Below, piece after piece: positions 12,993 to 64,000 of a DNA stretch of 64,000 nucleotides. Below the pieces are notes generated by a model. The model saw only the letters and a list, made by a program, of their open reading frames with translations, ran no database searches and was not told the DNA's origin. The position numbers and the translations under genes were made by a program. Origin of the DNA: Raillietiella orientalis. Its lineage: Eukaryota. The DNA lies in contig JAYWIR010000122.1 of the NCBI GenBank assembly GCA_036172245.1, positions 1 through 64,000 on the forward strand, read 5' to 3'. Numbering within the stretch: position 1 is the stretch's first letter; every line of letters begins with the position of its first letter.

Positions 12993-15900
12993 TGTACCTC
13001 TTTTCATTAAATCTTTCTTTGAGGCTTGGGGTCTGTTTCTTTTTGATGGAGTTCTTGTTGTTTTTAGAAAACCTTCAAGAATATCTTTTTGTGATTCACC
13101 ACCATTTAAAGCTGAAATACAGTTAGTTTCCTTAATGAAAACAGTGTCCTTACATGGGTAGTTCCTCCTTGCTTTGCCATCATTATGACTGGCAGTCAAT
13201 AACTGCTTTAATTGGACATCACTTTGTGGAGTTGTTTTCATCTTTGTTTGCTATTTGTACAGAAAATTATTTTCATTATGAAAAAAAAATTCTAAACATA
13301 CCTTTTCCTTTAGCAGTTTTTCTTTGTGTTGACTTATTTCTTTATTTAGGTGAAGCTGTACTTTTTCTCTTGTAGTCCTGTACTCTAGTGCAAACTCACT
13401 TATGATTTTGCATACACCTTGAATTGTATAATCTCTGTTATCAGGACTTCCAAGCCACACAAGAAATTGTCTAAATCTGATGAATTCTAAAGTTCACATC
13501 AAAGCCAAGCCACAGATGCTCTACCTTTCCTTCATACACTTAAAAATTTTTTGAAGCAGGATGATACGTTGTGCTGACTCTTGTAAGAATTTTTGCATCC
13601 TAAAACTGACAATTGCTAAATAGCTAAGAATTAATTCTTACTTTATTTTGATGCCTGATTCATGCTGAGAAATTATCTTGAGATATTCTGCTGCACATTT
13701 ACAGTCATGCTCTATGTTTAAGAGCATATTGTGCACTTCATTGAAATCGACTTTTGAAGCCCTTATCAATGGGCCTATCTAAAATAGGTGATTAATTATA
13801 TACAAGAAATGGGAATTTACTAAAATTCGTACCTCTGAGTATAAATCAGTTGTTTGTGGGTATTTCTTGGAAACTGTATAGCATACATGATAAAGTAGAG
13901 AATGTTTATGCATTGTGTCTTTAACCTCGGGAACTTTCTTCAGATAATCAATCATAAAGCCTTTTGCCTACATAGGCTTGTAACATTTTGTGATTGATCA
14001 GAATAATTTCTAACTTACCTGTGTACCATTTAAAAAATTTCCTATAGTCAATATTGTTGACAGAACAAGTTTGAACGTAAGATTTTCCTGAAGCTGTGCA
14101 AGACCAACTTTCAAATCCCATAATGGTTCCGCAATTTCCTATAGAAAAAACAAACAAACAGCATGAGAATTTTCTGAGTTTGAATCCCATTCTGTATACT
14201 TTTTCAACAATGTCGAGATCGAATTTGAAAGCCCAGAGTTTTAATCGTGCTTCTAATTCTGATATGGAAGATAGTGTCAAAAGGAATCTTTCTGCAGATC
14301 CCAAAGGAATGTCAGGATTATTAATGGAAGCTTCTAGAATTTGGTGCTTCTCTTCTTCCGTTGGCAATAGATTTAAAAGTTTCTGAAACGAGATTGCTTT
14401 ATTCTTATTCCGAGTTTTTGGATCATGTTTTACTTCGATGCTTTCCCGATTCAAAATGCTGTTATCCATTTTCAGAATTGCAGCTTTGATTGTTCTTGGT
14501 GGTGGGAGTTTGGTGATTGCTATGTTAATAGCATTGGAGCGTTTTGGATTCAATACAGTTAGTTCTTTAACTTTATTCAATTCATATTGTTTCTAAAATG
14601 CATTTTTATTATTATGAGAGGGCACTCAAAATGTTTCGTTTTTGATGGTTTGTAAACTGGTATTTTTTGATCAAAATATCAAGCAAGCAAGTTATTCCTT
14701 AAATTGAATGAAAAGTAAATTTCAACTTACTTCCTAATCAGCAGCATTGATGTAGACCATGAAAAACAAAAGTAACAATTATTACATGAATATTATTCTG
14801 TACTGATTAATAAAAATCATAAGTTGCCATTTTTATGCATTTAGTGTATAGCGTATGGTTTAGACATTTTGATGATAAGCCATACTATTGCCCTTTCTAA
14901 CTTATCTGGTACTAACAGTTGGATTTATTGTGGCAATACATATGAACCAATGCACATATATGATATCCAAAAAACGTAAAGTGTTAACAATTATCTTTGA
15001 ATACGCATTCTCGAGAACTGATGTAAAATGAGATTTTTTTTGAAACGAAAACTGTTTTCCCGAAAGCATTCTATGTGACTAATACTTTGTAAAAGTCGTT
15101 TATGTTCGGGTAAGTCAAATTTTCATTATGCAAAATGAATAAGATAGGAAGGCCCGTGCTAAGAAAAAACTGCCTTATAAAATGAAAAATGCTTGGTTTT
15201 TTAGACGAAAATTCCAGGCATTTTCAAAACACTTTTTTAAAAATTGGTAGGATGCTTGTTATTAGTTAGATGAAGCAGGCTAAATAATGCTAATCACTTT
15301 TAGGGTAATGTTCGTGTTCTCAAAGTTTTTAAATTACATTACAATATTTGTGCAAAAGTAGAATGATACCAAGTAAAAAATAATGATACAAAGATACATG
15401 GTGCCAGTGGCCTAATTGACAATTTCATTATGACAATTCGAGTAATTTTTAAGAGTAACTGATTTTAAAAAAAGTGAAGTTGATACCTTCACTGATTCTT
15501 TTCCTCTATTTTCAAACAGCTGCTCCATGATTTCGTGGTCTATTGAAACTTTTGGAAGAGAATTCCATAATGCTGATTCTGTGTGATGAATTTCATTCCA
15601 GAATAATTTTATTGTTTTTTTGTTTTTAGCAGTGTTTGTTTTCAAACAGAACTCTTCATTTAGATTCTTGTTCGTATTATGATTTTCCATCTTATGCTTC
15701 AGATTTTTAAGCACTGGAGGAGGAGGAGGGCAGTGTATGCTTAAAGGAGGTGGAGGAGGAATTGATGAATTGTTTTGCTTTGTTGGTTTGCTCACTTCCA
15801 CACTATAATTTTTGTTTTCAATTTCTAAATCTTTGAAGTCTAGGTCGCCTATCACCAGTGGTAAATTGTGAGATTCATCAATTAATCTTTCCCAGAGAAA

Positions 15901-18900
15901 TGAAAAGTCTTCTTTGGAATTATGGGTTTTATTTTTACTTTGTGTCACATCCGACTCACAATCAGTTATCTGTTTTGAAGATTGTGAAGTACAAACGTTG
16001 TTTTCTTAATACATAAAAACAGTCAGTTCTTTGGAGAAAATAGTAATTATTTGCAATAAGAAGCAATGAATAAAATAATCAGACAGTGCTTTTAGACTGA
16101 AGGTCTCCGAAGCACTTTGCAATTTTTTAAATTAACAGTATTCAAAGAGGATACCTGTTTTAATGAATCCTTGATGAAATTCAAAGGCATATTTTTGAGT
16201 TCCGTTTTTTTCCAGTCTTTTCCTAAGCCCCGGTGTGATTTCTAGTTTGCTAACTATGCAGGGGAAAAAAATTATAATATTTGAATTCCCATATGTGAAA
16301 ACAGTTCACTTCGTGATGTCGTGAAATTACTTTCCAACTCATGTACAAGTTCTATAAATGCAGATTCGTTATTTAAAAAATGCAAGTAACTGTTTGATAT
16401 TAGGCTGTTGTTTGATTTTAAAGCTATAAAACAATGCATAACTCATGTATTTATGAGGTCATGCACATAAATTAAATAATAAATGAGAGCTACTGTCATT
16501 ACAGTTAAAATCTCGTGTGCATTTAACGTTGTCAACGAGTTTCAAGTTAGGTGACATTGTGTCCGAATCTCTGAATCTGGAATTACAGATTCTACTATTG
16601 GTGTTTCGTGCACCTACCGAAGACAGTATTGTTTAGATTATTTTATTCTCATCTTATGTGTTTTTATTCATTTTTGTTTTTCTCAAATGTAATTCTGTAT
16701 TTCTTCAGTGTATACAGTGACCGAAATGAATCCTGCTGTTGATTTAAAAGTCAGATATTTTATGTTTTTGTTTCCCGGGAATTTTTTTTTTTGTTTTTGT
16801 AGAAGTGTGATCTCTCAAGTCATCAGAGATCACAAGCTCTAGATTTTCTTGAAGATATTGTAGTATAACCATGAGTCCTCCGAACTCGTATTTGAATGAG
16901 CACGTTTTCTTTGTGGCTCTGCAGTTCTGTAGCTTATGGATGGATTTTAATAGTGTAAATACAGAATTCAGCACCAGCCACAAATACACAAATGCTCAGT
17001 AAACAGTACCAGTCTTCTCTTTAGGAAAGCGCTTATTACCCAGCATCTTTGGAAGCCGTTGATTGAAGAAAGGAACGTGCATTGCTTTGCTCTCCTTCAA
17101 GAAAGTTCGCAATGGAAAAAGGATGCTTAAATGACTATACATGGTTTTAATACTTGTGAATTTTATTTATTCGTTGCTGTTCGTATGATGTTTGAGACTT
17201 TCGAATTTTATATGATTGTTTCCTAGAGTAATTTGACGCACTGTGTACTGTATACATTTGGAGGCATAGGTTAAATTACAGAAATTGTTTTTGATAATTC
17301 TGAAGTTGGATTCACAAACCTATGGAATTTTTCAGTACTTTGCTTTTTCCCCCACCGTTTATTGATGTCACTTTCTACTGTATTTCACGGAAATTAATTC
17401 GAAATTCATTAATTAGTAATCCATTTTTCTGTGCGTACGTACATGGAGCACATGCGAATGCAGAAAGAATTGTAAAAATGCTTTTAGATTCTTTGGAGTC
17501 TTAAGGAAAAAATGTTTAAGTGTGAAAATGCTTTTAACGTTATAAACGACTGTAATGTCCCATATTTGAATATTAACAAAACTAGATTTGTATGTATTTT
17601 CGAGTCTTTGTGATTCAATAGAGTAACGCTTTGTTTTGATCCCAAACTGCAAATGCATATGCATTTGCTTTTTCAGTAGCTGATTTTTTCCGGGTAATGT
17701 GGTTGAGCAGCATTTAAGAATTTGATCGATTAATCTAATTTGATTAAATTATTAATTATTAGTTTAATTTGATTGATTAATCTAGGCAATCATATTTTAC
17801 TCACATGAGTCCGCAAATAGACGCTTTCTAAAAGCCTTTTTAAAGCAGGTAGAAAATGTCTTTCCTCTTCTCGATAATAAGGAGCATCTGAAAACCATTT
17901 TGAAAAACAAAACAACAAAAAAAAAAAGGTAAAGTTCAATAAACGAAACTGACAATTTTTTTACGATGCTGTTTTGTGTTGTTTCTTACCGGATTTTTTC
18001 ATCCAAGTAGCAGATGTCTTCAGAATTCCCACTTTCAAATTTATAAATGGCATTGTACGTATAAAGCAACTCCAGAAGTTGTGCATCTGTCGTTTCGCTA
18101 TTTGAATGCCTAAATGTTAATTACAATTACAACAGCCATTTGACATTATTCACAAAATTGGAAGCTTATAAGGAACATTGTTTTAATGTACTTAAATTCG
18201 ATAATTCCAATCTAATATTTGATCCAATTGTAACAACTCTAAACATGTATTTATTTTAAATAAATACGTGTTTAGAGTTATTTTAAGTAAATATATGATT
18301 TGAAATAATATGCAATACATTTTTTTTATTCTGAAATTTCTTTACTTTGCTAAATGTATAGATTTGCTGATTTGAGTGCGTACCTCTGAATCAGTTTGTC
18401 CATACCCAGTTCTTCTAAACATTCAATCTGATTCCAGCATGTGTTTTGGTCTGGTAGGCTGATTAAGGTTTTGATTATAAGAAGCATTGCGTAGCGCTTT
18501 ATTTCCGATTCTATATCTTTGTTGCACATGATTTTCATTATTGCGGTCCATGGTCTTTCTCCTGTTGGATATTTTTTACGGATAAAATATATCACAAAAA
18601 AGTTTCTAAACAAATTGAGTAGCTGATTTTCATAAAGAAGCGTATAGCTCATTCATGAAAAATGTGTTAATTCAATGATATACGAACTCTCACCTCTCTG
18701 CGTTTCCACAGCCTGTACTGCTGTTATTAAAGTTGACGAATTAGACTCCGAATAGTCAATAAACACAAGCAGTAATTTGAGGGCACTTTTAAGAATAACT
18801 TTTTGGAATGTAGTTGTTAAAGTATATAACCATTTCACAGTTTCAATATGTGCCACAATTCCATTCATGCCATCTACGTATAACATTATTTGTCCCAATG

Positions 18901-21900
18901 CTAGAAAGGAAGATATTTATTTTGAATGAAATGTAATTAGATATTAACATTAGTCTGCTTGTAAACAGTATACACTAGTTTAGAATTTTGTTGCTTCACT
19001 TAATACTTGTAGTTCACTACTACTGAGTTACGTGACGATTCGAGTTTATGGATTACTGAGAAAACAACAGCAGTTATATACGCTAAAGTACGCAAAACGC
19101 GCTTTAGTGGAGGGGAGATTTTCGACTGTACATGCCGGGCGATACTATTTGAGAGTAATTTCTCTTCTGTGAGCTAAAGTTTGGCTTGGTCTTCTTGACT
19201 AACAGACGAACAAACAGGCGGATAGTACAGATGAAGGTATATAAGAAAGCTCGTACAATTATTTTAAATAATGCGTTCAAGAGTACTATTTTAAGAAAAA
19301 AGCAATATAATAGAAAAGTTTGCACATAAACTCCCCACACCTGTCAAACATATCGAGAATTTTCCTGAAACCAGACAATATCACATGGGAACAATTAGCA
19401 GGATTAGTAGGAAGCATAAAAAATGCACGACTATTAGGTGTTTCCACCTTTAATCTGAGAGCATTCGGCAACTGCTGAACTAGCATAACTTCCTTATTTC
19501 ATAGTGCCAGTGGTGGAACCGCAAGGAATTTTGTTACAATACCCAGAAGAATGCAACTTCATTAGAAGAATTGTTTCATTCGTCATTTTAAATTTCGCTT
19601 CCTGCATAAAAGTCATTTGCAGTATTATGTAATCGGTATTTTAGAAGTCAGCAAGTGATTTTGCATATTTGTTATTTACAAACCTTGTTTTTCGTGCTTT
19701 GCTGTTTCATTACTGTTTTTACAGTGTATCTGGATAAATGTTAAGATGCAAATGTTTTCGCAGCATTAACCAATTGAATGAAAATGTATTTACTGGTTAA
19801 TTTATTGATGATAATAAAATCAGTGGTTACTGTCTTGATGAAAAACTTGTAATTATCGGTGGCAAACTTAGTGGATTCCTGATAAACATAGGAAAGCAGA
19901 TGCCAAGTAGTTGAATAAAATTTTCACGAGATGGGTGCTAGTTAAATCGAGTATTCTGCACCTTAAGATCGTTCACAAGGATCCATAAATTGTTGGAAAT
20001 TCTAAAACGATAGGATTCAAATTTATGGTAAAAAAATTAGTTTGAAGTGATGGCAATGAGTATGTAATCACATCTTTGGGGACATTTAAACTGAAGCGGG
20101 TTTTTAAGAAGCACATTAATTAGCTTTAGTTGGATCCGCTAGTAGTCTTTCACGTAGAAAATAGTTTGTCATAAACATTTATAATTGGAACTTCACTTTA
20201 AAGTATCTTAAGCCACATATTTGTTTCCTGGTAATTAGGCTGCCAAATTCATGCTTATCTTATAGTCAAGCGTAGTTTTCTTCTCTCCTAGAGACCATTG
20301 CTTTATGATGATGATCGCATTTTTTGTGTGTTTTTTGCCTTTTCGACACAAAGATGAATCACATACTTGGGTAATTATGAATTATGGAAAAGCAATCAGT
20401 ACATTCTCAATCCAAAAACATTTAAACAACAAAGATTAAAATTCCCATTAAGAAAAAGTCTTGAATTGAGGTAGAATGTTTAGTTTTCATGCACCTAAAT
20501 GTATTTGCACTTTCTAAGTCTTCCAGAAGGTATTCTGCTCACGGAAGTTTAAAAGCTTATAACTTTTATGAAGATCTTGTTTGGCTTGCTATTTTTTCCC
20601 ATAATATATTCCAAGAGAAGAATGTAAAAGGAGCTTGCAAAGTTTGGAAAATAATTAATCGTAAATATATCATAAAGTATGCGCTATCATAAAGTGCTCA
20701 TTGATTGTAAGGTAAGGGGAACTTGTGTGCGTTCGCTCACTCCATCTCCCCTACTTTCGAGAGGATCGTGAAGTCACATAAATTTAGTTGTACACGGTGT
20801 GCTGAAAACACATACCCTATTTGAAGTTTGATGGAAGTAGTCATACTTTTCTGACCGCAGTTATAACTAATGATGAAATGTGGCTCTGTTTTTGCTTCCT
20901 TGAAACACAAGCGCCTCCCTCGTGTTGCCTCTTAAAAACTTCAATTAACAAGCCACTATCTTGAAAGTTACTAATTTGAGGGATTACAAAGTTCATGTTT
21001 ATCCGCTCTGGGTACTCGTGGAACACGTTAACTGTTAGAAATCCAGAACTTCACGAGAACACCTATAAACAATCCATAAAGACAGTTTCGATATTACAAG
21101 GAATAAACTACCGATTAATGACGTGTTCATCACACTGCGGTTCCCCCTATTTCTATACGTTTCACGATACTCTACAGCTTAATCTTTGCTCTCGAGCGAA
21201 AGATTATAGGTCTTCGAATAGGTCTTTTGGATGTCTGAAAAATCATATCCTCAACTTTTTTAGTAAACAATCTCAAGAAAGAGACAGCAGACTGATCTTG
21301 AAGTAGGCAATGTGATAATTCGCTGCTTTCCTGATGCAGATTCGTATGGGCAAACAAGTAAAGTAGAGAGGTGTTAAGAAGTAGGGCTTGTATTAGGGAA
21401 TGCATTTGCGAAGTTTCATTAGATTCCAATCAGTAATTATTTTATTACTTTGTCATTTAATGTCATTCATAATACCTTTTGCCAGCACTTGCCTGCGTGA
21501 ACTTTCGTGGAAATATTGCAAATGCCTTTTTATTCGGATTTGGTTTGCTATCTCATGAAACCTTTCAGTTTTCTAATCTTGTAATTTAATGCGAGACCTG
21601 TAATTGTTTTGAATATCCTTTTTATACTTTGATGTTTCCAAAAGTGGGCTCTGATATTTGTTGAAGACTTGAGTTGTATACAGAATTGTTTTATTGTCTC
21701 TGATTAATGATCGTGGGATTAAAGAGGATTTCCCTATATAATTCCGAGTGGCTATAACTATTGTGGACGCAGTAGTTGTTTTTAATTAAGAATATTCTAT
21801 TTAATTGCTAATTATGATAAGAGTTTTAATGGATCATCCAGGAAGATTTACAAATCTTTAAACTTTTAAAGAGAATGATCAGCACCTCTAGGATGGGAGC

Positions 21901-27971: not shown

Positions 27972-30199
27972 GATTTCATTAATCACTTTCCACAATGCCA
28001 TTTCTACTCGGCCAAAATGGTAAATAATCAATTAATAAAAGTAATGTTTTATGTCACTTTGTTTAATCAGTTTTTTTTATTGGCGTATCCACTACGGGAA
28101 GGATGATTAATGTCATACGGCATTTACAATAGATCAAAATTATTATTTTTCGTATTTTAAAATGTTCATACAAATATAAAGAAGGATGGAATCTTTGTGG
28201 TTTGGTGTAAATAACATGTTTAATCTGCTTGAGGAAAACAAATGAAGACAAAATTCAATAAATCTTAAAATTTGATCAAAATGATAAGTAATTGAAATAA
28301 GAACTTTTTTTTTTGTTTTGTTTTGTTCAGAGTTCCAGTCTTTTTGTTCCCCTCTGCATTTCTTTTGTTTCATGTTTTGTGAACGTAATCGTTATTTAAC
28401 ATATTTAACATAAACTCATTTTTCGAGCTCTTTTATTCATTTTTTCCGTCCCTTTCCAGCGCCGACAACTGAAGGAAAATAACTCACCTAATGGTTGAAT
28501 GGGTGGAATCAAAGGTCACTCATGTAGTGTAAAAGAAGAAAAATGAAATAAAAAATTGATTACAAATCTCTAGCTTAGGAAATTGGCATTCCTTCTGTCT
28601 AGAACTTGTGAGAGGCAACGACTGTGGCCCGTTGCAAGTTCCCCATGATTGCTTTAAACCATGGTGTTTTCTGGCGACGTACCTTTTTCTTTCTTTCTTT
28701 CTTCTTTTTTAATATTATAGCTGCCTAGAAATATTCTGAGTTTCTCGGGTTCACGAGTTACCTTATAAGTTAAGTTCCTGTGTATTAAACGAATGTTACC
28801 GTGAGCTAAAGTGGATATTTGCTCTACTGAGCTTTTTTTTCTCCTATCTGGACACACTCGAATTATCGTGCATTCGGATAAGCTAACTCTACCATGAGCT
28901 AACCATTTCTAAATAAACCGTTTTTTTTTTTCATGTATGATTATCAAAAGCAAAGTGCAATGTTTCTTATAATTCTCATTTGCAATCTAAACTTTTCTGA
29001 CTGATGTTTCGGGCTAGGCAATCAGAAAACAAGGCAACCAAAAGAGCAGGCTTCGGAATAATGACATAAAAACAATGGAAAAAATAAAGTAAAATGCAGC
29101 ACGAAGTAAATTCATAGCTCTGAAGAAAAACGAAATGTCCTACAGCATGTATTTTTTAAAACGTTTTATATGCCAAGGAAAATTTACAATAGGTTTCAGA
29201 TGTGAAAATGACAGGAAAATGATCATATAATCATACTACGCATTATCTGCTTATGCTATTGCTTCAGAAAATAGCTTTCCATACTTTGCAATCATAAATT
29301 CAAAGCAAGCTCTCTTCTGGTAGCAGGAACATTTTGATACTATACTCTGGTAGCACACATCGCCGCAATCATTTCCGGATGTGTTTCTCATGATGATCAT
29401 GCATCGGCTCTTGACTTCATGCAATTGGATATGCGGCATTGCTACCAGATATGGTACAACACAAGAAATCAAGATACACCAAAGTATAACAGTAAGCATA
29501 CTTGCTTCGTACATTCGTACATCCTCGTTCTTCGAGATAGAATCATGCAAGATGTAAACTACGACTGCCATTTGCTATGAGTGCTGATGCAAGCGAGAGA
29601 GAGAGCATGAGATTTTCCATAGCTAATTTCACTAGCTTCACGAAGTCGAGGGACTGATTTCGAGTCTCTTCTCACTCTTTTAGACGTCCCCATCCACGGA
29701 ATTCTTTAGTAAAAGGCGAAAGAATTATGCGTTAGAATGGGGACCAGAGTTTCTTCTCACTCTTGTAATTTTGATTTTCTTTTCAATTTCTTCTTCATGT
29801 TTCCAAAATTCCTGATATAGAAATGTGAAATTCTGAGCTTTTTTCCTGTAAGAAGATTCCTTATGCAGATTACTTATTACTTTTATCTTTTTTTTTAGTG
29901 AATAATGATGATGGTTCGTTCATAATACTTTGGCAGGAAGTATGCTCGTCCCGATGATCATCTTAAAGGTTCAGCACCCTTGACTGCATGAATATTTTTC
30001 CTACTTGTTTTATAGTCTTTAGGGATGGCATAAATATTTACTGGCCTTATGAATTTTCGTAGATGACCTATGAGCATAAAAATGGGTGTTCGGAGTAAAT
30101 CACATGGCTACTAGCTTTCTAACTCCTCTAGGCTAGAGATCTTATTCTAGTTCAGAGAGGGAAATTGACTAAAGATTCCGTTTTGATGTTCGTCACGAT

Positions 30200-51026: not shown

Positions 51027-53426
51027 TCAATAGAAAATGGATTTGACTTTGTGGAATGGAAATTTTTTCAATTCTTCTTGGTGTTTTCTTCTATAGTCCC
51101 AGAGGTAAAAATCAACAAAGATCGAATTTATGATATGAGATGGATCAGAAACCAGTTGTTTCAATTTATATACGACTTTTTCAACTGCATGAATAGAACA
51201 ACCTCTTATTTCTATTTCTTCAGAACAACCAGGAGATAATGGCTGATCTACAAAAGTAATGTTAAAACAATATGCTCCAAATGTGTTTTGTCTGCAATAG
51301 TAAACAAGTAATTAATCCCCAAATTTTTAGTACCAACAACTATAAAGAAAAACATGAAAAGGCAAAATCCAAAGGCAGACTGTTTTCCTATCTAGAAATG
51401 CGCTATACTCTTTGTTCCATAACATTATATTACTTCATATTTGCAAAACTGGTAGCATCACAACATGCATGAATGAATTCCAAGAGAAAAAATGAATCTT
51501 GTATAAGCAAACGGCAAAAGTACTTCACATAGCATGATACTTAGATACCATCATGTAGACAACAAATAACATAAAACTAAAAAATGCCCTCACTTGGACA
51601 AGGTACAGTTTTTGAATCCATAAAAAGCAATTTGCACAAGCATCAAGAAAACATGAAATTTTATGTAGATCTGTTGTGTTAAGTAACTATAAACTGCAAC
51701 TATACCAACTAGCAGTATGAGACCTTCATTATCAGTTTGAAAAGATATTTTCAAAAAGGTATCAACTTGCTAATAAACGGTTAATGAAATAATGCTTATC
51801 TTTAAGAGAATACAAAAATCCCTTGCAATCTCAGGAACAAATGTAAAAAAAAAATCTGCTTTATTTGTCACATACGCCTTGTTTCAAATGCTTTAATAAT
51901 TTCTATTTTCTACATACAGAACATCGGGACACAAATGCACATATTTGAACGCTTAGATTTACAGATGGTTTGGAGGCATACATCATGCACTGATTGCTCC
52001 AAAAATAACGAAATTCTTACAACCTTGAAACTTTCAAACAATTTTAGGAATAATAATGCAGATGCTTGACATTAAGAAGATACCAAAGTATACAACAATA
52101 ATAATAAATCAACAGGAAGAATGCACGAAGAACAGATTTCAGTGCAAAGACCACAATTTCAAGGTCTATTTTAAATGTAAGATTAAACACAAACTAAATG
52201 AATTTGAAGGCCAAAAAGCAATACACACATTAAAAAAATTGCAAAAATCTTAAAATATGCAAGACTTTTCATCTTGTTCGTTTCATTGTTTTGAATCACA
52301 TCAAGCATAATCACACAAATTTCCCTACACACAACTTTTGACTATTTGAAAATCACTTTCATACATCTCACATTACCTGAAAGCAAAGATTCTAGTAATT
52401 CTGTAGAATATGATAACGCACCAAAAGACAACAACACCTGCGGTACTCTGCAACATATCAATGTGACTGCTATCACACAAGATAACTCTTCACACAAACA
52501 AACCTATAGTCAGCAAACATTGTTAACTGGTCAATATCATCAAAACATCCTAATCCCTGTCCTTCAAAACAACACCAAAGGTCAGCAATCAAGATCTGTG
52601 CTTTCTTGTGAAATGCAACTGCAATTAACATTGCATGATGAAACAATATTATAAAACTCACCAACATAACCCTCATAAATGGCAGTGTCACAGAATGGAG
52701 GGAAGTCACTGGTTAGCACCTTCAGCAAAGCATCAGCACTATGCATACAAGAGTGTACACAAACACTAAATTTGCCTTCATATTTTTCAAGCAACTTTTT
52801 CCCTATCTGATGTAATGCATGACAAAACAAAAAAACTTCGCAGTATAGGATACCTGGTGCAGTACATGGCAACGCTCATTCAGCAAGGGGATATCACCTC
52901 CATCATCAGATTGAAGAATGAACTTAAGCTCTTGTAAACTAATTTTGGAATAAAAAGTGGCATCAGTGATTGGGATCCCTGCCTGTTCAAGTGAGAAATG
53001 TTCTCTTCGAAAGACCTCCTTACCTCAGATGCTTTATTTAAGGCAGCACACAATGCCATATATCCTGTGTATTGTTTATTCTTCCATGTTACTGCATATG
53101 ATTTGCATCCACTATTCCAGAAACAGAAATTCAAAGCATCCACTACAAAAAGCCACTCAGCTGCTTGATCACTTGCCACAATGGGATGAACATCGTTCTC
53201 CTTCCATGAATGCATGCCAAATTGATTCTTGTTCAAAGCTCGTAAAATCTACCAATACAAAGTAATACAATAGAACTATTCATGATGATGGATGTGCCTC
53301 ATTTCACAGTACCTCTCTGACAATAGCAGCAATGCCTTCATCTTGAATGTGGACATGGTGTGCTTGAGATGCTATCATATGAGCACCTTCTCGTGGATCC
53401 AATAAGATTGAGTACGTAGGACTATC
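51027..53426 (-). CDS. QNG1: Queuosine 5'-phosphate N-glycosylase/hydrolase (queuosine salvage protein, C9orf64/DUF2419); start codon probably in an upstream exon at 56093-56073
   Basis: Exons 53426-53313, 53248-53024, 52982-~52854, ~52806-52662, 52618-~52504, ~52447-52377 and 51247-51027. Peptides LLDPREG, WLFVVDALNFCFW, YTGYMALCAALNKA, GIPITD, AFHKKAQILIADLW, DIDQLTMFADYRVPQVL, EIEIRGCSI and NSIFVDFYLWDY...PFHKVKSIFY*. Confidence 0.93.
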
Positions 53427-53537
53427 CTGAAACCAAATTGTGAAAATTTGCAGTCAAAAATTGTGCATGCAGCAAAATGGGCAACTATTTATAAGAAAAT
53501 TTCCTTGACCCAAAATGCTGTTCTCTAATTTATCTAA

Positions 53538-53543
53538 TTTATT
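53538..53543 (-). terminator. Candidate polyadenylation signal of PLA2G15
   Basis: AATAAA on the minus strand ~40 nt after the PLA2G15 stop and ~110 nt before the QNG1 acceptor. Confidence 0.55.
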
Positions 53544-53581
53544 GCAAATTATGTTGACACAATAACAATTGTGAGCCACTT

Positions 53582-55909
53582 TTAAGTTTTTTCGTTTTCA
53601 AACTGTAAAAACAATGATCTCAAGTAACTGAGTACTAGTTCATTGTGCAATATTGTCATATGGTCCACACCATGGTATGTTTGATAATAAACTTTTTGTG
53701 GCTGTGTTTTCTTCCATTCTAGACATGCAGCTAAACTTCGCAAGTTCACAGTGCCATCACCATCTCCATAACTTATATAAGGATCTTTTCGTAACCATGT
53801 TCCAGCAGGATATTCCAACCTGAAAGCATGAAATGAATCACTTTATTTTCAAATTTATTTACTATAAATCGAAACACCTATTTATTGTTGGTAATCCTAT
53901 TCCATGAAGACAATGTACTTCCACTCCTGGTGCAGTCAGATCAGCTATCAAATGTTCAGTATCCTTCCTCATTTCCCAACCTACTAAATAATCCACATCT
54001 CTAAAAACCAAAACAATTGAAAGGCATAGAATCACTATGACTCAAAACATACTTAAAAAAACGTTCATAATCATTAACTGTATAGTTGAAAAATTCATTA
54101 GCAACCAGAACTTCATCTGATCGCCAGAACTTTTTGGAAGGCATCAAGAAAGAAAGACTTGGAGAAGAAATCTGCTGTATCTTAAGAGAATGCGCATTTA
54201 ATAAATAGACACCTAAATCATCACCTGTAAACACAAACCTCAGCATATGCACTATTGTCTGGCACTTACCAGCAACATATACTTTTAAAGCCTTAACAGT
54301 TCCAGCTAGACATCCATTAAGACTAACAAATGCTCGAATATATTTATCTTTCCATGACTGTTTCATTTGGTTCAAAAAAAACAAAGTAAATGCTGAACCC
54401 ATGCTATGGGAAATTAAAGTAACTCGAACATTTTGATTTTTTTCAAATGTAGTCTCAATAAGCATTTTTAAATTGTCAAAGAATTCTGAATGTTCATCTG
54501 GAAATATGTGTGATCTAATGTAAACTAACAGATGTACATAATTGGAAAAAATGAATGCATACTCATTTTCAATACAGCATGTGAAAAGAATGAACAGTGA
54601 AAAGTGGAATCACAATAAAGTTACTAGATGAGAATCCAAACTTACTAGGAGCTTTCCTAAAATCAAATGGTGCACCATGCAAGTGAACTCCTCTTACATA
54701 CTTAAATTCTAGCAATAATTCTACTATGCTATTAAGGTACTTGCTAAGAAAAATCTGACTAGGATCAAGATATTCTATAGTGGTTGTATTTCCAAATCCC
54801 GGTACATGTATTGTGACACCTGGTGTATTTGATGTTGTTCGTGTTACATTATTGTAATACAGCCTCATGTTATCAACCTAAAATTTGTCTCAGAAAAGTC
54901 ATTCTACAATTTATTAGACAGTATCAAAGGTAAGATACAATTTGCAACATCCTTAAAAAAATCCACTATAGCACTAATTTTGAAAAAATTAAAATTATCA
55001 TGATCTTCATAATTTGCATCAAAAATAACCACTTACAAGGCAATCAATAACATAAGGAACCAAAAGCTCAAGGTTCAGCCATAAATCAAAATAATATGAA
55101 CTTTGCTTTTGGCAGAAATAATGTACAGAAGTTGATTTACTCAAATAAGCTTCCAGCTGACTTCCTCCATCACCTGGAACTATAAAAAAGACCAGTTTAT
55201 ACTCACAAACATACCCAAAGGATTTGCGAGCAAATACCAAATGAACAGAATTAGCATTTAACATTCATAGGCATAAGAAGTTTGGTAGACTTTGTAAACA
55301 TTATATATTTACAAAGTCTACTTAACTTCTGAATCACAATACACAGACAGATACAAAACTAACGAAATTATAAGTAAAAGAATAACAAGAAAAAAACAAA
55401 TGAAAACTTTAACGAGCATTTCAAGTACAATTAGTTAAAAAATGAAATTGCTGTCTTATGCTTCCCTCAGTATCTGAAACCTACCTGAAATAGGAAACTA
55501 TTGAATGCAATGAATTGACAATGAGCATTGATTGCAATAACAAAACACTTATTCCCAAAGTAACTGTCGTTACGTAACAAATTAACTTTTTAAGTGTACA
55601 TGCTTTACTCTTGTGGTTGCCATCATTCTAGAGTTCATATTTATTGTACAATTATATATTTACACAGCATACTGTATCTAAAATTCAATGTTTGTGTATG
55701 AAATATGTAGAGGTACACACTCTACACTTGGAATCCACAATTCATATAGCATCTTTTTTTAACTAGCAATAACAAAGTATACTGTAGTTCGAAGATGCTT
55801 CGTGTTTATTTAACATACTATACTTACCAAGTACAACAGGAGAAATGCTCCATACATCCTTGTAAACACCAACAAAACAGAGTGCTATAAGATAGTTACT
55901 CAGGCACAT
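53582..55909 (-). CDS. PLA2G15: Group XV (lysosomal) phospholipase A2 / LCAT family
   Basis: Signal-peptide-like first coding exon 55909-55828 (MCLSNYLIALCFVG...SPVVL), then VPGDGGSQLEA, WLNLELLVPYVIDC, VPGFGNTTTIEYLDPS, GAPFDFRKAP, catalytic SHSMG, APGVEVHCLHG, YGDGDGTVNLRSL and GVDHMTIL. The Ser/Asp/His triad motifs are intact. Confidence 0.92.
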
Positions 55910-56072
55910 TCTCAAATACTACCCATAGTCTAACACACACTGTAATCTGCTAAGAAAAAATCAATAACTATTTGATAATTGCAGTTTTTAATAAACCGGC
56001 AATTTGAAAACGGTATGAAGCTGCAAAAAACAACTTTAGCCCAATCATTCCTAGATGGCCAATGGGACGTAC

Positions 56073-56130
56073 CCTGCTGCTTACACAACGCATATTGGCA
56101 ATAGAACCACATAAAAATATGCGATGCAGA
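56073..56130 (-). other. Candidate first exon shared by PLA2G15 and QNG1
   Basis: Ends in the donor AGG|GTACGT at 56073/56072 and contains ATG CGT TGT GTA AGC AGC AGG (MRCVSSR, phase 0). The 5' boundary is approximate. Confidence 0.55.
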
Positions 56131-57025
56131 TTTTGGACCGAAATAAAATTGACACGATTTTACTGTTTCATTAAGTTTTCAAGGATCGCCTAATTTAATT
56201 TGCTGATTGAATTCTTTTTTCAAAATCTTTCGCGTACAAAACCATACAGACCAAGTTACAAATTTTGCATTACTATGATCTTAAACTATTATGTATTTTA
56301 CGTAATACCGTGCTTGGTGAATTCCTAAGGATTTCCGTTAAAACAGAGCGGCTCTCGACTACTTCGCAAAGAACTTCTGACCACTTTGAAATTGCAGATC
56401 CTGGAACCTACAAATTAACGTTTGTGCAAACAGCTCGCGAATTGTTTCATTCATCTCCGAAAGTTGAGAAACAAGGAAATCTTTTAGATGAAACAGGTGA
56501 TAAATCTTATTGTGCAAAATCGATTAGTTACAAATGCAACAGATCCTATTGCAATAACACTTCCAGTCATGATGTTTTCATAGTGGACACAAAACTAATG
56601 TAAACCAGTAGGTTAATGTACACCCATAGGTTGATGTATGAGTAATCAAATCCAAGTACTTATCAGAAATTTAGAATAATTAGTGCGAAATATCTCGATC
56701 ACATAGAAAAACTCATGTTTTCTTTACAAAAGTACATTCTTTGGCTCCTGTCACTAAAAATGAAAAGATGTTCTATTTGCTTGAACTCTCAGCATGCTAG
56801 GGGATATTAAATAGCACATGTCTAATTACTAGAATCAATGAAGTTTTATCGTATGCGAAACTGCAAAGAGTGATGTATTAACAAAACCACAATTTTCCCC
56901 AAGTCCCACAAGGGGTGGGGTAAATTTATTTTTCAATTTTTAAAACATTCATACTACAATTTCCATTCACACAATACACTACCACTTTCACTTGAAGGCC
57001 CTTTGGGTTACTCAAAGTTCTGCAC

Positions 57026-59331
57026 TCAGGGTGGGTTTCCAGATGTTTGGTCCCGGGCGTCGTCCTCAATCCTCTTCAGGATGAATCGGGACGTCCAGGC
57101 CTGGAGTCGTCCACAGTTCCTGATACCGATCTCCCTGAGGATGAGTCCTTGTAGGATCTCCATGGGGGTTCTGGTTCTCCTGGCTTTCCTCATATTCCAC
57201 CACCGCACAAGTATGGCGGTGAAGAGAGCAATGGTCATCCTCACCATGGGATTGTACCAGGGAACATTACCATCTCCCTGAAACATCCCGGCGAGGATTT
57301 CCATCACAGATTTGTTGTTTTGTCCTATGATCCTTTTCAGGATCAGCCAGTCGCGTAGCAAAGTGGGATACGTCAAGATGTGGAGTCTCGTATCGATGTC
57401 TCCACATGCCGTGCAGTCTTCCCGTCTTCCTGTGAAGTGCTTGAGCCTGGACCCGCTCTGGATTCCTCCATGATAGAACATCAGGAGGTCGTCCAGGGTG
57501 TCCGGCGGAAGGTCACTCCTCCAGAGTGTCGTGCCAATCGCCAACAGGTTAAAACGGTTACTCCCGTAGCGATCGGAGGCTTTTTGGAGGGTACTGGTGT
57601 CTTGGTCTTCATCCTTAATCATTCTTCGGAGGTTCATCTTGGTTACCCTAGACCATGCGAAGTCGTTGTGGTTTTTCCAGACTTCGCGAGTCTTGTGGGT
57701 AAACCTACCTAACATCATCTCTATATACCGAAGTATACGAGTGTGATGTGGGTATACTCCTCTTCTGAACTCCTGGATGCGTTGTAGGGTAACTCTGGAC
57801 CGCTGGTAGATCCAGCTTCTGGTGTCCTGGAGGACCGGAAGCATCCATGGGATCACCAGGATGGACTCCTCCTGCCAGAGTTCCCTACTTTTGGGCACGA
57901 TTTTTATCTTGTGCTTTCGCACTAGCCTTTGTTTTCTTGTCCAGGTGGGGTCGATGGTTCTCCATTCCCCTGTTCGGCCTAGCAGCGCAGTCATCAGGCC
58001 TTTCGAGTTGTTCAACAACAACGCGTAGGCCCTGTGTGCCGCGTATGACCAGTCGTCCCAGTGAGTAGCGATATCCAGGATGTGTCGCGTATCCATGATT
58101 TCCATGGAATGTGCAAGCGACTTCATCCCGGAGCCGCCTTCTTCCCTGGGACGACACAGTTGTTTCAACCGACTCTTGGGCGATAGTGTCCCCACAATGT
58201 CTTTCTCTGCAGCTTTTCCACTTCTCTGGTGTTTTCTTTGTTCAACCTGGAGAAGGCCGTTCCGAAGAGCACCTTTGGAAGGAGTACTCCATTCCATAGG
58301 TTGGCCTTTCGCTTCATGTCAAAACCCAGTCGGGTGTACTTCGCTGCTTCCTCTGCCGTTTTCCCCAGCATTTCCTTCCACAGTAGCTCCGACGCAGAGT
58401 CGTCGCCAATGTGGACTCCCAGGTACTTGGACGTGTCCAACGTTCGGAATCCTCTCCCCGTGTGAGCGGAGAGGTCCAGGATTCCGACGGGCAAAAGCTG
58501 GCTCTTCTGGGCGTTGATCTTCAGGCCCAGTCCCTCCTTCATGAGCATCACCACATCCAAAAACGCTTGTTGATCCCTCTTTCCCCTGATGAAGAAGAGA
58601 AGATCATCCGCGTAGGCGAGATGGGTGAGCTTCTGGTTGTCCATTTCCATCCCTTGTAATCTCCCACTCTTCTCAATGAATGAAGAGAGCGCCTCCATAT
58701 AGATAACAAACAGCATCGGACTTAGCGAGTCTCCTTGCCGGACTCCTCGTTCCATCCGAATAGCTGCTGTTTCCAAACCGTTGATCTTTATCCGGAAACG
58801 TTGATTCCGGAGGATCATTTCCACGAAGGTACTGGAGTATTCCGGAAGTCCCAGCTTTTCCAGAATCTTCAGCAGCATCCCATGGTCGATGGTGTCGAAG
58901 GCTTTCTCCATGTCGGTGAACGCCAGCACCAGGTTCTCGCCGACGTATCTGCTACGTCCCACGGTAGCTTGCGCACACTTAACATTGTCCGACATGTGGC
59001 GTCCGGGTACCGCACATGTCTGGACGGGAGAAATCAGCCTCGACATAACTTTGCTTCAGAGGTTGGCCCAGATCTTTGCAACCACTTGGCATCCGAGTTA
59101 AGGATTGAGATTGGCCTCCATTGAGTGACCTGCGTTAGATCACCTCCTTTTCGGCAGCAATCTCGTCCTACTCCCTCAGAAGGACTCCGGCAATCGTCCT
59201 TCTTAGAAGCACACGATGTCTTGTTGTGCGATGATCCGCACAATCCTTCTTCTTTTAACCTGGTCGATCAGACCATTTACATTCCAGGAGGCGATGTTAA
59301 TCCTCCTGGCGGTCGATAGGGTTGAGGCCAT
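57026..59331 (-). pseudogene. ORF2 (APE stub fused to RT and C-terminal zinc knuckle) of the Tx1-like element
   Basis: RT motifs lie in ORF 58165..59046 and the C-terminal part in 57026..58297. There are stops and frameshifts at ~59000-59205 and ~58200-58290. Confidence 0.88.
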
Positions 59332-59343
59332 AAAGGGGAAGAC

Positions 59344-61211
59344 CTACTTCTTGGCCTTCCTGAGCTTCTTCTGTCTGGGAGAGCGTGGTGCTCTTCCAGA
59401 CGAAGAAGAGGGAGCGGGTTACTCGCTGCCAGCGTCTCTCTCCGTCCCGGTGAGATTGGTGATATCGGTCTCCTCGGTGGAGTGCTCGGCTCGTGCGACG
59501 AGCTTGCGTGGGAGGGCTTCCAAAGCCATCTTGGCTCAGAAGTTTGCCTTTACGTCGAGAAGTTTGTCTTCCAGTTTCTCGCGCTCGGCAACCTCCACCA
59601 CCTGGTTGACGGTTTCTTGTGCGTTGCAGATCTTCTGCAGGAGTTGCTCCTGCTGAGGTCTGCTCTTCACTTCCATCACCTCCTCCGCCAATTTCTCGAC
59701 CTCTTCGGTAGTCTGCAGGGCCTCCTGCGACACCGGAGTGGATTCCACCTTTTCCGCCCTATCGCTTTCTTCCGCTACTTCCATCTTTTCGCCTTCCACT
59801 GCCAATACTTCCTGGGTTAGAGGAGTTTCCTGCTCCTTGACGAGCATCTTCCTCTTCCCCTTCTTCCCAACTTCAACAAAGCCGTCCGCCGAAACCGGAG
59901 AGGCCTCCCTCGCCTTCCTCTGCTTTAATTGTTTTTGCGGTTTCATAACCTCCGCCAAGACCTCCCTTACGGGAGACTGGCCACGCATCGTCCGGTAGTT
60001 TGCGAACTCCGGGCAGCTCCACCTCGCGTGCCCTGGCTGCTTGCAAAACGAGCAGACCTCGGGCATATCGCAACTGCGTACCAGGTGCCCTGCTTCCCAC
60101 AGCGGAAGCAGCGAGACCTGGGGCAGGCACCCTGACGATGGCCGAAATGTTTGCAACCTGTGCGGAACACAGGTTGCTGCCTATGAAAGATAGAGACCTC
60201 CTGGGAGTCTCCATCAATATGCACAATCCCAGGGTTCTGTGCCTCCTCCTGCAGCTTCACCTTGGCGATCACCTCGCCAGAGAAGATTTTTCCTGAGAAG
60301 AAGTTCTGGAACTCTACCTCCAGAATCTCCCCAAACTTGGACAAGAATTCCCAAACGGCATCCTGCTCGGTAGTGACGCCAACACCTCTCAGGAAGACGG
60401 TCATGTACGGCATTTCGCCGATCCCACAGACCATCCGCCCCTGGATGTTGATGCCCTTCTCGATCAGGGCCTCCCTCAGTGGTTCACTATCTGTATAGAT
60501 AGTGAACCCCGATGTACTCGGAATGATCGCCTCCAGACGATCAAGTCCACATTGGTCTTATATAAGGCCATAAGGCCTTACATTATTGAAGCGGATCAGT
60601 CCGGTCTTAAACGTTATCGGTTTGGATTCCGGACTAAGCCGCACAATCGGCTCCTTGACCCGGGTGATCTTTACCCTCTCGGCTCTGCAAAATTTTCTCT
60701 GCGGCTGGGCACTTGCCTGGCCCGCCGCCACCGCTGCAAAAGGAAAAGGCTGCACCGCCGCAGCCGAGCAAGATGGCGTCGCGATGTTCGCCATGTGGAC
60801 GCCCGCGGGTCCCGCCTGGGACGCCGCCTCGGGCGTGACCTTATCCGCCGCCGCGAGCGCGACCCTTGGCATCGCCGCCGCCGGCGCGACCGTTGCGGCC
60901 GCGGGCGCGATCCTCGGCGTCGCCGCCGCGGGCACGACTTCCACTGTCGCCGCCGCGGGAGCGATCCTCTGCCTCGTCGCCGCCTCGCCACTGCCGTACT
61001 GTACCTCCATTTCTTCTATGGGGGACGTCGGCCTCCTCGCTCCTCCTACTGTTGCCTGCATCCTGGCGGCTGGTACTGCCGCTGAGGAAGTTTGCAGGTT
61101 TTCCGCCGTGGTCTCCTCGGCGCTTCTGCTGCAGTTGTAAGAGATGATCCTCGGCAGCACTGTCTTTTCCACACTCACTTTCTTATTGACACTTGTCCTC
61201 TCAGGGCACAC
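59344..61211 (-). pseudogene. ORF1 (gag-like, RRM plus 3x CCHC) of the Tx1-like element
   Basis: Overlapping ORF pieces 60558..61211, 59967..60434 and 59536..60156, and a basic tail SPRQKKLRKAKK* ending at 59344. Confidence 0.85.
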
Positions 61212-61234
61212 ACGATCACAACTGACTACAATTA

Positions 61235-61279
61235 ATTAACCGTCGTGATCACAATCAAACCTTGAAGCCAGGTAAGTAT
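61235..61279 (-). ncRNA. U1 snRNA 5' fragment (splice-site-binding end plus stem-loop I)
   Basis: The minus strand reads ATACTTACCTGGCTTCAAGGTTTGATTGTGATCACGACGGTTAAT. The first 13 nt equal the metazoan U1 5' end. GATCACGA (U1-70K loop) starts at nt 30, versus nt 28-29 in human and fly U1 as remembered. No stem-loop II (ATTGCAC) follows. Confidence 0.75.
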
Positions 61280-63635
61280 AACCACAACCGATTCGCCTTT
61301 CTCGCACGTGCTCTTTTCCGAATTTCAAAACTGTGAAATTTATAATTTTCCCAACTACCTAAACGTGACGTTCACGCTAACTTGTATCGGAGCAGACTAC
61401 AAGTTTCTTGAAGAAAGAATACTAAATCACAGATCTCTATCTAAGAAACAAGAATCGGATTGTTTGTTTTTATAATTTCTTCTCCCATTTGAATTTTTGA
61501 AAGTTACATACAATGTATGCAGCTTCGTATGCAAGCAGCATTCTCAAAACTCAAAACAAAATTCTATTTTCAAAACTAAAGTATATTGAATTAAAAAAAA
61601 CAACATTCTCTCAAAATTTTTATAAGTACGAACAGTGGAGACTTCTCCAAGACAGACTTTTAAAGAGCAGCGGCGGCGGCGCCGGTGGAGGGCTTCAAAG
61701 ATCTCGAGTTACCTGGTCGGCACCTGGCAGCTATTGGTGCCGTGGACTAAAGGACATGGATCAATGACGTTGCATCTGAACTGGTGACTCCAGGTCTGAG
61801 GGTGCCTAGCATCGAAATGTGGGGAGTTCGAATTGCTCTTTGTGGTATATCTGGAAACACAGGAGTGAGGGTCACGAACTGAGAAATGAACCTTGTGAAT
61901 CTGAAATGGATGACCAGGAGACGGAAGGAAGAAACAGAAAGTTGTTAGGATTTGATGCGTCACTGCCCCATCTCGCGTGGGTGATCATATGAATTCCGCT
62001 GGACTTTCTCGAATTCAAGTCCCTCAGAAGAAACTGCTGCAATCCTCTCTTACGAGCTGCCTTTCCATTACCACATCTAGACAGTCAGACAGCTAACAGA
62101 TCTATCAACCTGGTGGAATCAAATAAGAGTAGGTGGGAAAGGTCTGCTCCCTGACAACAAAGCCTATTGAATGATTTGCATACAATGTTTCACGGAGGAC
62201 TGGGGTCTTGCAGAATGTTCTTAAAGAAAATCATAAAGGTAGTGTTTTTCTGCTAGGCAAACACCACACACATCTGTCACAAGTAGAAAAAAATATTTTT
62301 TTGGGTGGGATTAGATACCTAAGAAACGTGAATGACTGTCCACTGTCACTGTACGATGATAATTCATCCGATTCAACATGCACAAAAACGCAAAAACATC
62401 GTGCATGCCACGGAAGAGCATCTCCTTGTCGAGAAAGGAAACTTCAGGGATGCTTGGAATCGTACATCCTAAATTCTGAAAAAAAACAGCGTTTTTCTTT
62501 TCAGAATTAGCGTTTTAGAGCTTTTCAGAACTTTTCGAATTAGCGCTTCTGAGAAAAGCTAAAATGCTTCTGCTTTGAAATGAGTTTTATTTGCTCGTTT
62601 CTACTTTTCTGTAGGCAGATATCCTCTCTTTCCATCAAATATTTTACTACAATAATCGTTGTTCTGAATATGCACTGAAGTTGATTTAAAAGTTCGGATT
62701 AATGATGCCAAACTCACTCCTTGAACTCCATTAATTACCTGTTTGTTCTGTGTTATAAGTATTTCCAATGTATTGAACAAAAGACTTAAAGTAAACTACT
62801 GCCCTGAATTGAAAGAAAAACTCAGATTAGGTGCAACGATATTTGCTATCATCAAGAATAATATGTATCGATGCCTCTTTTATAGATTGAATTCACCCAA
62901 AGCAATAATATTTATGCTGCACATAGACAGTTTCGGCTTCTTATTCAGCTATATAGGCACTGAAAACTATTATGGTATAACATCATGTTGCCTCTGATTT
63001 GATGAATTAGGCTACATGGCTCCAATTGCTTGATCTTGACTCATATATTTATTTTCATTACATAGATTTTCGTTTTTAATGGAACACTGTTTAACCATGC
63101 AGATTTGTCTTTTTTTATTTAGTTCTTAAGGTTTGCGTCTAGGCAATGAAGAGCATCGTTGACTTGAATTTCAGACATGCAAACATAATTTGCTCCTTTT
63201 CCAAATGTTTATATTAATGTCCAATACGAAATGTATAAGTTACGAAATGTTTTGGAATTTCTGAAGGTTTAGATGTCCTATCATACTTTATCCATATCAT
63301 ATTAAGATTGGGTATTTGTTAAAAGTAATGTCAACATGTACAAATTTTTGCTTCATTTCACTTGCATTCTTGTTTCTTTCTATCGCTTTCTCTCAGAGTA
63401 TCACAATTTTTTATTCATGGATCAACAAGATTTCGATTGACGGTTTAAATTATTGATAGAGAGTATAATTCGTTAACTTGGCATAATTTTCGAAATTGCA
63501 TAAAAGCCCATTACAGGGAAAAACGAATTTACGGACGTCATGGAAACAGAAATCACAGGAAAAAAGAAAAACTGAGTTAGTATTTAAAATACAAAACCTG
63601 AAAAGACAAATCGAGGCACGACAAAAAATTCTCGA

Positions 63636-64000
63636 AACAACTCGAGAGTCCAGGTGACTGCGTTACTGGGCCAAGCAGGGGAATGGTCAGACATTGACCC
63701 CACTTGGAGAAGGAAGCAAGCACTAGTGCAAAAGCACCAAATCAAGATTGTGCCTAGAAGCAAGGAACTCTGGGAGGGAGAATCCATCCTGGTGATCCCC
63801 TGGATGCTTCCGATATCCAGTGACACAAGGATCTGGATCTACTACCAGCCCTACAAAGAATATAACAATGGAGAAGGAGTGGGTTCTTCCACCACGCCAG
63901 GATACTAAAATATGTCGACATGATGACGGGAAAGTTCACCCACAGGACCCGCGAAGTGCGGAAAGACCATGGTAACTACGCGTGGTCCAGGGTAACCAAA
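63636..64000 (+). mobile_element. 5'-truncated copy of a related Tx1-like subfamily, running off the window
   Basis: TALLGQAGEWSDIDPTWRRKQALVQKHQIKIVPRSKELWEGESILVIPWMLP aligns with TALLGRTGEWRTIDPTWTRKQRLVRKHKIKIVPKSRELWQEESILVIPWMLP of the first element (~58020-57640). Homology starts abruptly at aacaactcga. Confidence 0.92.

Follow-up and report, generated by a model that had tools for sequence, protein, structure and literature searches.

The locus described here raises the question of whether a LINE-type retrotransposon begins with the 5' end of U1 snRNA and, if so, by which route the U1 segment came to stand at its head. The window is the whole stretch of DNA that was analysed, with a length of 64,000 nucleotides. 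A first-pass annotation had quoted U1-like letters at the upstream end of a Tx1-like element, and these letters are present as quoted, on the minus strand and in the place given for them.

The U1-like head

The head opens with ATACTTACCTGGC, which is an exact copy of the 13 nucleotides at the 5' end of U1 (61279-61267, minus strand). Sixteen bases separate it from GATCACGACG, and an A/T-rich stretch with pairing ability comes next. The loop motif GATCACGA stands downstream of the 13-mer at the spacing of stem-loop I, and the arms on both sides of it are able to pair. The stem pairing announced in the first-pass annotation is thus possible, except that the end set there at 61235 falls short, as the pairing extends to about 61229.

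The 13-mer has a single site in the 64-kb window when two mismatches are permitted. This count is weak by itself, because 57 of 100 shuffled sequences also have at least one site at two mismatches. The composite pattern ACTTACCTG-N(12-24)-GATCACGA has one match in the window, against none in 100 dinucleotide-preserving shuffles.

The alignment to the Rfam U1 model (RF00003) begins exactly at 61279 and spans model positions 1 to about 52. It matches all 12 of the 12 conserved letters at the U1 5' end, and 10 of the 11 pairs of stem-loop I are standard or G-U when the alignment is read by eye. The loop reads GAUCAcGAcG (GAUCACGACG) against GAUCAaGAAG, the consensus of the U1-70K loop, so that a single conserved letter is altered. 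The head as a whole differs from the conserved U1 letters of Rfam at 3-5 places, namely the GG of the stem, the CC paired with it and an A in the loop, with the reservation that the Rfam consensus may not equal the U1 of the host.

A covariance search with the U1 model had been put forward as the check on this identity, and its scores lie far under the gathering score of 69.5 bits: 10.4 bits (E 6.2) when 901 nt were searched and 12.8 bits (E 0.14) when 101 nt were searched, with E-values multiplied over 4,227 families. The Rfam scan of the whole window returned no U1 gene at the gathering score. No counterpart of stem-loops II-IV was recovered, the 3' part of the model being aligned at low posterior probability or left unaligned; nor does the 5' UTR, read by eye, contain an Sm site, since it has no run of at least four U between purines. 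Because of the sub-gathering score and the lack of an Sm site and of stem-loops II-IV, identity with a U1 gene fails, and the head is, judged by its letters, a U1 fragment of ~45-52 nt. The hairpin of the head is about as stable as shuffled sequence (z 0.14), and this, together with the low covariance score, means that the 3' arm of the stem is possibly not U1-derived, in which case the head could be only ~41 nt long. Folding energy was accordingly given no weight as evidence for the head. We consider it highly probable that the head is U1-derived and that it is part of the transposed unit.

Two short words of the head region recur in the element. The 8-mer TTGTGATC of the U1 hairpin (61214-61254 region) is repeated in the 5' UTR 33 nt further down, at 61221-61214 (minus strand), and its count over the window equals the chance expectation. 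The 9-mer AATTGTAGT (minus strand) is found both just past the hairpin (61225-61233) and in the 3' UTR (56953-56961); the window has four such sites where 1.13 are expected. These recurrences may represent partial duplication or microhomology.

Organization of the element

Downstream of the head, a G+C-rich block that extends from 61279 to 56893 (0.52-0.53, against 0.31-0.38 in the surroundings) has the anatomy of a two-ORF LINE (Table 1). The head starts 218 nt 5' of the first ATG of ORF1 (61061), a distance that the first-pass annotation had put at about 70 nt; position 61235 is reached only by the stop-to-stop open frame of ORF1.

Table 1. Features of the element, its boundaries and the host-gene open frames in the 64-kb window
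Feature	Position	Strand	Evidence or remark
Target-site duplication, 5' copy, TTGTGGTT	61280-61287	-	Directly upstream of U1 position 1
Probable U1-derived head, ~45-52 nt	61229-61279	-	Letters, Rfam U1 alignment, composite motif
5' splice-site-pairing end of the head	61279-61267	-	Exact 13-mer
Stem-loop-I-like hairpin of the head	61264-61229	-	Loop GATCACGACG at 61250-61241
Remainder of the 5' UTR (whole 218 nt)	61062-61228	-	No snRNA similarity
ORF1, N-terminal part, Ala/Pro-rich	60558-61061	-	ATG at 61061 to in-frame TAA at 60560-60558
ORF1 continuation, two frames (60557-59967, 60180-59536), one frame change	59536-60557	-	Translations: RRM-like stretch, putative CCHC zinc knuckles
Putative internal-deletion junction, ~1.3-1.5 kb lost	59186-59209	-	Alignment start of relatives, divergence points of contigs
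ORF2, reverse transcriptase, two frames, one frame change near 59040	58165-59267	-	Pfam RVT_1, E 1.2e-25
ORF2, C-terminal part, 430 open codons, frame change relative to the reverse transcriptase	57026-58318	-	Stop at 57028-57026
3' UTR, 133 nt, ending in ...GGGGAAAA	56893-57025	-	Sequence; related contig alignment to 56903
Target-site duplication, 3' copy, TTGTGGTT	56885-56892	-	Directly after the 3' end of the element
Host-gene open frames	52883-55264, 13951-18916, 11989-12541	-, -, +	Pfam

The putative zinc knuckles of ORF1 have the spacing CxxCxxxxHxxxxC when the translation is read by eye; the Pfam matches to zf-CCHC_2 (E 0.011) and zf-CCHC (E 0.12) are both below the cut-off, and the matches to RRM proteins in PDB are weak (E 0.024). 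A 28-nt stretch in the ORF1 region (60481-60508) is self-complementary, with a 93% match to its reverse complement.

The last 430 amino acids of ORF2 had neither a Pfam family nor, in the protein search, a homologue of similar length. In the L1 group an apurinic-type endonuclease stands N-terminal to the reverse transcriptase; the Pfam search found no endonuclease domain in this copy. None of the 11 full-length relatives aligns ahead of its own residue 444, the alignments lying at 59208 and below, and related contigs assembled from DNA sequencing run X1 continue unlike the window at 59151, 59186 and 59209. The absence of the endonuclease is read as a deletion because the related X1 contigs diverge at 59151-59209; the endonuclease domain and the linker of ORF2 would have been removed together by this internal deletion. 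With one in-frame stop, three frame changes and the endonuclease apparently deleted, the copy is dead. It nevertheless looks young, given that the stop and the frame changes are all that is seen in ~4 kb and that 17 of the 145 related X1 records are at least 95% alike.

Relatives and clade assignment

The best relatives of the reverse transcriptase are 31-34% identical in one protein library, and none in the HMMER library of 1.84 billion representatives exceeds 39%; across these two very large libraries, the nearest proteins are 27-39% identical. Among the 10 top relatives scanned, the Pfam domain RVT_1 is present in all 10, Exo_endo_phos in four and zf-RVT in three. By the endonuclease-RT-zf-RVT architecture of these relatives, the element is assigned to the L1/Tx1 kind of LINE. 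The label "Tx1-like" of the first-pass annotation is plausible in view of this architecture and of the putative CCHC knuckles of ORF1, and a survey (PMC5203782, in excerpt) regards the RRM/CCHC type of ORF1, when found in an animal, as consistent with Tx1.

A metagenome scan gave 11 LINE loci, comprising eight substantial matches with 25-33% identity and three matches of 17 residues with 71-76%. The word ATACTTACCTG is present in none of these 11 loci, and the head pattern had no match in prokaryote-genome contigs or in viral contigs.

Sequencing run X1 shares 6% of sampled words, and its contigs were aligned at 80% likeness. Related LINE copies in this run cover 56903-59900 and, thinly, 60557-61207; their coverage leaves out 61208-61279, which includes the head, and the flanks. 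In addition, a second LINE fragment of a related family lies at 63636-63999 (plus strand), is 5'-truncated and runs past the end of the window. This fragment and 57639-58012 are 72.5% identical, and when translated it is similar to the C-terminal part of ORF2.

Boundaries of the inserted unit

The 8-nt direct repeat TTGTGGTT adjoins U1 position 1 on one side and the 3' end of the element on the other. With random boundaries and a search zone of 160 nt, the null frequency of such an 8-mer repeat is 0.005 (~0.5%). At the 3' end, a related X1 contig aligns down to 56903, so the similarity within the family reaches to 10 nt or less from the boundary. No remainder of U1 was matched beyond the 3' end at E<=10, either in 55500-57300 (1.8 kb) or in 56650-56960 (311 nt).

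Because TTGTGGTT brackets both the head and the LINE, and U1 does not resume on the 3' side, the 4,387-nt unit 61279-56893 is best described, from its letters, as inserted in a single piece, head included, into a TTGTGGTT site and not into a resident U1 gene. Some of the 8-nt repeat could be due to microhomology of the element's tail with the target. The description of the element as a two-ORF LINE with a U1-derived head, one of two offered in the first-pass annotation, agrees with the duplication and the LINE anatomy as far as this copy is concerned.

Genomic surroundings

A U5 copy is located at 29662-29767 (minus strand) with an Rfam score of 64.1 bits, above gathering, and retains the 5' stem-loop only. 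Six nucleotides replace the last 33 positions of the U5 model, which hold the Sm site and the 3' hairpin. The copy is flanked by 21-nt direct repeats (29662-29682 and 29747-29767) that are identical at 19 of 21 positions and 85 nt apart, and no tandem array was found around it. Its appearance is that of a U5 retro-pseudogene without a tail and truncated at the 3' end, or else of a partial duplication. Since the copy is truncated between direct repeats, it is suggestive of snRNA retroposition in this genome.

A match to the H/ACA snoRNA SNORA14 at 55688-55800 (minus strand) is sub-threshold (27.5 bits against a gathering score of 36, E 0.014) and lies between the exons of the LCAT family and the LINE. 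The open frames with Pfam matches to host genes belong to the LCAT family, queuosine salvage, an FHOD-type formin (FH3, FH2) and the lipid desaturase PEDS1/Kua. The first LCAT-like open frame has the same strand as the LINE, which lies ~1.6 kb upstream of it. The PEDS1 exon has at best 74% identity to a beetle, 69% to a rotifer and 67% to a bird; because it is only 67% identical to the bird and 74% to the beetle, the host is taken to be an animal that lacks close kin in the protein library searched, and is not a crocodilian.

Origin of the head

As the head is the 5' end of a unit bracketed by an 8-bp duplication, the RNA that was reverse-transcribed would already have begun at U1 nucleotide 1, and the head would have travelled with the LINE. 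We propose, tentatively and at little short of an even chance, the following course. The reverse transcriptase of a LINE would have copied the LINE RNA as far as its 5' end, switched template onto U1 snRNA and copied it to the U1 5' end; the switch most likely took place in an ancestor, and the head would now be inherited within the 5' UTR of the family, as proposed for the crocodilian families Tx1-2_Crp and Tx1-4_AMi. Inheritance is favoured over a fresh event because the copy looks young and yet its head departs from the conserved U1 letters of Rfam. The snRNAs of the host need not be A-U-rich, since the U5 copy in the window keeps G-C-rich stems. The number of copies seen with a 5' end is one, the present copy, and a 5' end exactly at U1 nucleotide 1 would equally result from a new template switch or from transcription driven by a genuine U1 promoter.

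The promoters of snRNA genes lie upstream of the gene, and a transcript devoid of an Sm site is unlikely to enter the canonical snRNP route. Because the head carries no Sm site and such a promoter would remain outside it, the head probably does nothing essential. Any effects on capping, export or splicing, as put forward in the first-pass annotation, are conjectural. A stronger proposal would make the head a module of a Tx1-like lineage that is ancient, handed down and under selection, shared by this animal and the crocodilians, in which a putative U1-70K site or a donor-pairing 5' end aids nuclear handling or target choice. The shared U1 segment of ~50 nt and compensating changes that preserve the hairpin would speak for it, and the head would then be more than a passive relic of template switching; we regard this as improbable.

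The main competitor of family inheritance is a one-off chimera, in which the reverse transcriptase jumped onto U1 snRNA or a fragment of it during this very insertion and the other copies of the family are headless. This would be an ordinary template-switch chimera, with a head limited to the present copy. It would account for a unit whose 5' end is exactly U1 nucleotide 1 within a single duplication pair, and the truncated U5 copy between 21-nt direct repeats in the same window also speaks for it. Precedents are the mammalian snRNA/LINE chimeras formed by template switch and the 26 SINEU-2 copies that individually carry U1-like 5' extensions, both described in the excerpted text of PMC4494074. 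The departures at 3-5 conserved positions fit it poorly, however, as the rest of the copy looks little decayed. Moreover, in the human cases of the same source, fragments of L1, Alu or processed pseudogenes come after the snRNA part, whereas here the snRNA piece is 3'-truncated and a LINE with its whole 5' UTR and ORF1 comes after it. We hold this origin to be unlikely, although it is the nearest to family inheritance.

An improbable origin, by comparison, is that the copy is an off-target insertion of a LINE specific for U1 genes (at about position 50), which would be co-transcribed from the U1 promoter and carry the U1 part along as a 5' transduction. A U1 promoter would start the RNA exactly at U1 nucleotide 1, the Tx1 clade includes families that target U2, U5 and 5S genes, and co-transcription with the target, as described for R2, offers a parallel (PMC4494074, in excerpt). 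Against it, no U1-targeting LINE is named in the literature searched; the targets given for Tx1 in the same excerpts are U2, U5, 5S, satellites, microsatellites and transposons. The window holds no U1 gene, the divergence from the conserved U1 letters applies here too, and target specificity is not readable from a copy whose endonuclease appears to be deleted.

The first-pass annotation had offered, as its other reading, an insertion ~45 nt into a U1 gene whose promoter the element uses. A resident U1 gene or pseudogene would then have been interrupted by the LINE at about position 45-52, with the U1 promoter in the DNA upstream. U1-like sequence does run from position 1 and ends where LINE-specific sequence starts, and the 9-mer AATTTCACA occurs at -61 to -53 here and, by eye, also upstream of the U5 copy. 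For this copy the reading is disfavoured by the duplication, which encloses head and LINE together, and by the lack of a U1 remainder past the 3' end at E<=10, and we give it very little credence. The sharing of AATTTCACA was rejected as promoter evidence, since it is one 9-mer at different distances (-80 to -72 from the U5 copy) and the U5 copy is itself truncated.

A chance resemblance, by which GCCAGGTAAGTAT on the plus strand would simply match at random or be a splice donor of consensus type, and the rest would be coincidence, can draw on the definition of such donors as complementary to U1, on the 11-mer occurring twice in the window at one mismatch (0.89 expected) and on an Rfam score that is not significant alone, but it is highly implausible in view of the exact 11-mer being unique in the window, the loop motif following at U1 spacing in none of 100 shuffles, the match starting on the base that adjoins the target-site duplication, and the two plus-strand ORFs scanned ahead of the supposed donor (60297-61085 and 60574-61140) being antisense to the LINE ORF1 and without a Pfam family.

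Comparison with known snRNA-linked retroelements

The first-pass annotation had named Keno and the SINEU elements as precedents. A closer one had been overlooked, namely the Tx1 LINE families of crocodilians with heads that originated from U1 (Tx1-2_Crp, Tx1-2B_Crp and Tx1-4_AMi), reported by Kojima (2015, PMC4494074). The present finding is less new for that reason. The excerpts of that paper used here state that U1 or U2 sequences were joined to 5' ends repeatedly, most likely via template switch; they mention no internal snRNA promoter as known and leave open how the headed elements are transcribed. The point on U1-headed LINEs is restated in a paper on mollusc SINEs (PMC4758252, in excerpt).

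Keno, of the Tx1 clade, and Utopia are both found in U2 genes and also adjoin spliceosomal snRNA sequence (PMC4494074; PMC4640811, both in excerpt). These elements interrupt resident genes, whose remainder follows the element, whereas in the present case the head is inside the duplication and no U1 remainder follows.

Chimeric retrocopies of the U6/L1 type, made by template switch or RNA ligation, were reportedly described by Buzdin in 2002 and by Garcia-Perez in 2007, both as cited in PMC4494074; PMC4476161 and PMC6789731 reportedly concern the same type. Like the present element, these chimeras, as far as their accounts were available, have the 5' part of an snRNA fused to a LINE within one duplication pair. 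They are independently made copies, with the snRNA part continued by pieces of L1, Alu or processed pseudogenes. Here a U1 that ends after stem-loop I stands before a LINE with the 5' UTR and the beginning of ORF1 retained.

The SINEU elements resemble the present one in that a U1 5' part heads a retroposon which Tx1-type machinery mobilises, and partial duplications are found in their heads, as with TTGTGATC here. In the excerpted description they are non-coding and shorter than 500 bp, while the present element is a LINE with ORF1 and a reverse transcriptase. The head of SINEU-2 has its U1/U2 junction at positions 53-58 (PMC4494074, in excerpt), which gives it about the same length as the present head (~45-52 nt).

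The crocodilian headed families differ from the present case in that the host here is not a crocodilian, that a single copy is seen and that its reverse transcriptase is at most 39% identical to any relative in 1.84 billion representatives. Within the literature searched, U1-headed LINEs are reported from crocodilians only, and the present one is in a non-crocodilian animal. That a U1 segment of similar length occurs in another host, unrelated to the first, suggests either repeated capture by Tx1-type reverse transcriptases or an old association, and either option bears on how 5' ends are acquired and how promoter-less heads are transcribed. In the remaining respects the resemblance is close: as excerpted, the crocodilian Tx1-Mar families are, like the present element, two-ORF LINEs of the L1/Tx1 kind with a U1-derived extreme 5' end, and the headed families carry no snRNA promoter and have template switch as the proposed origin, as here.
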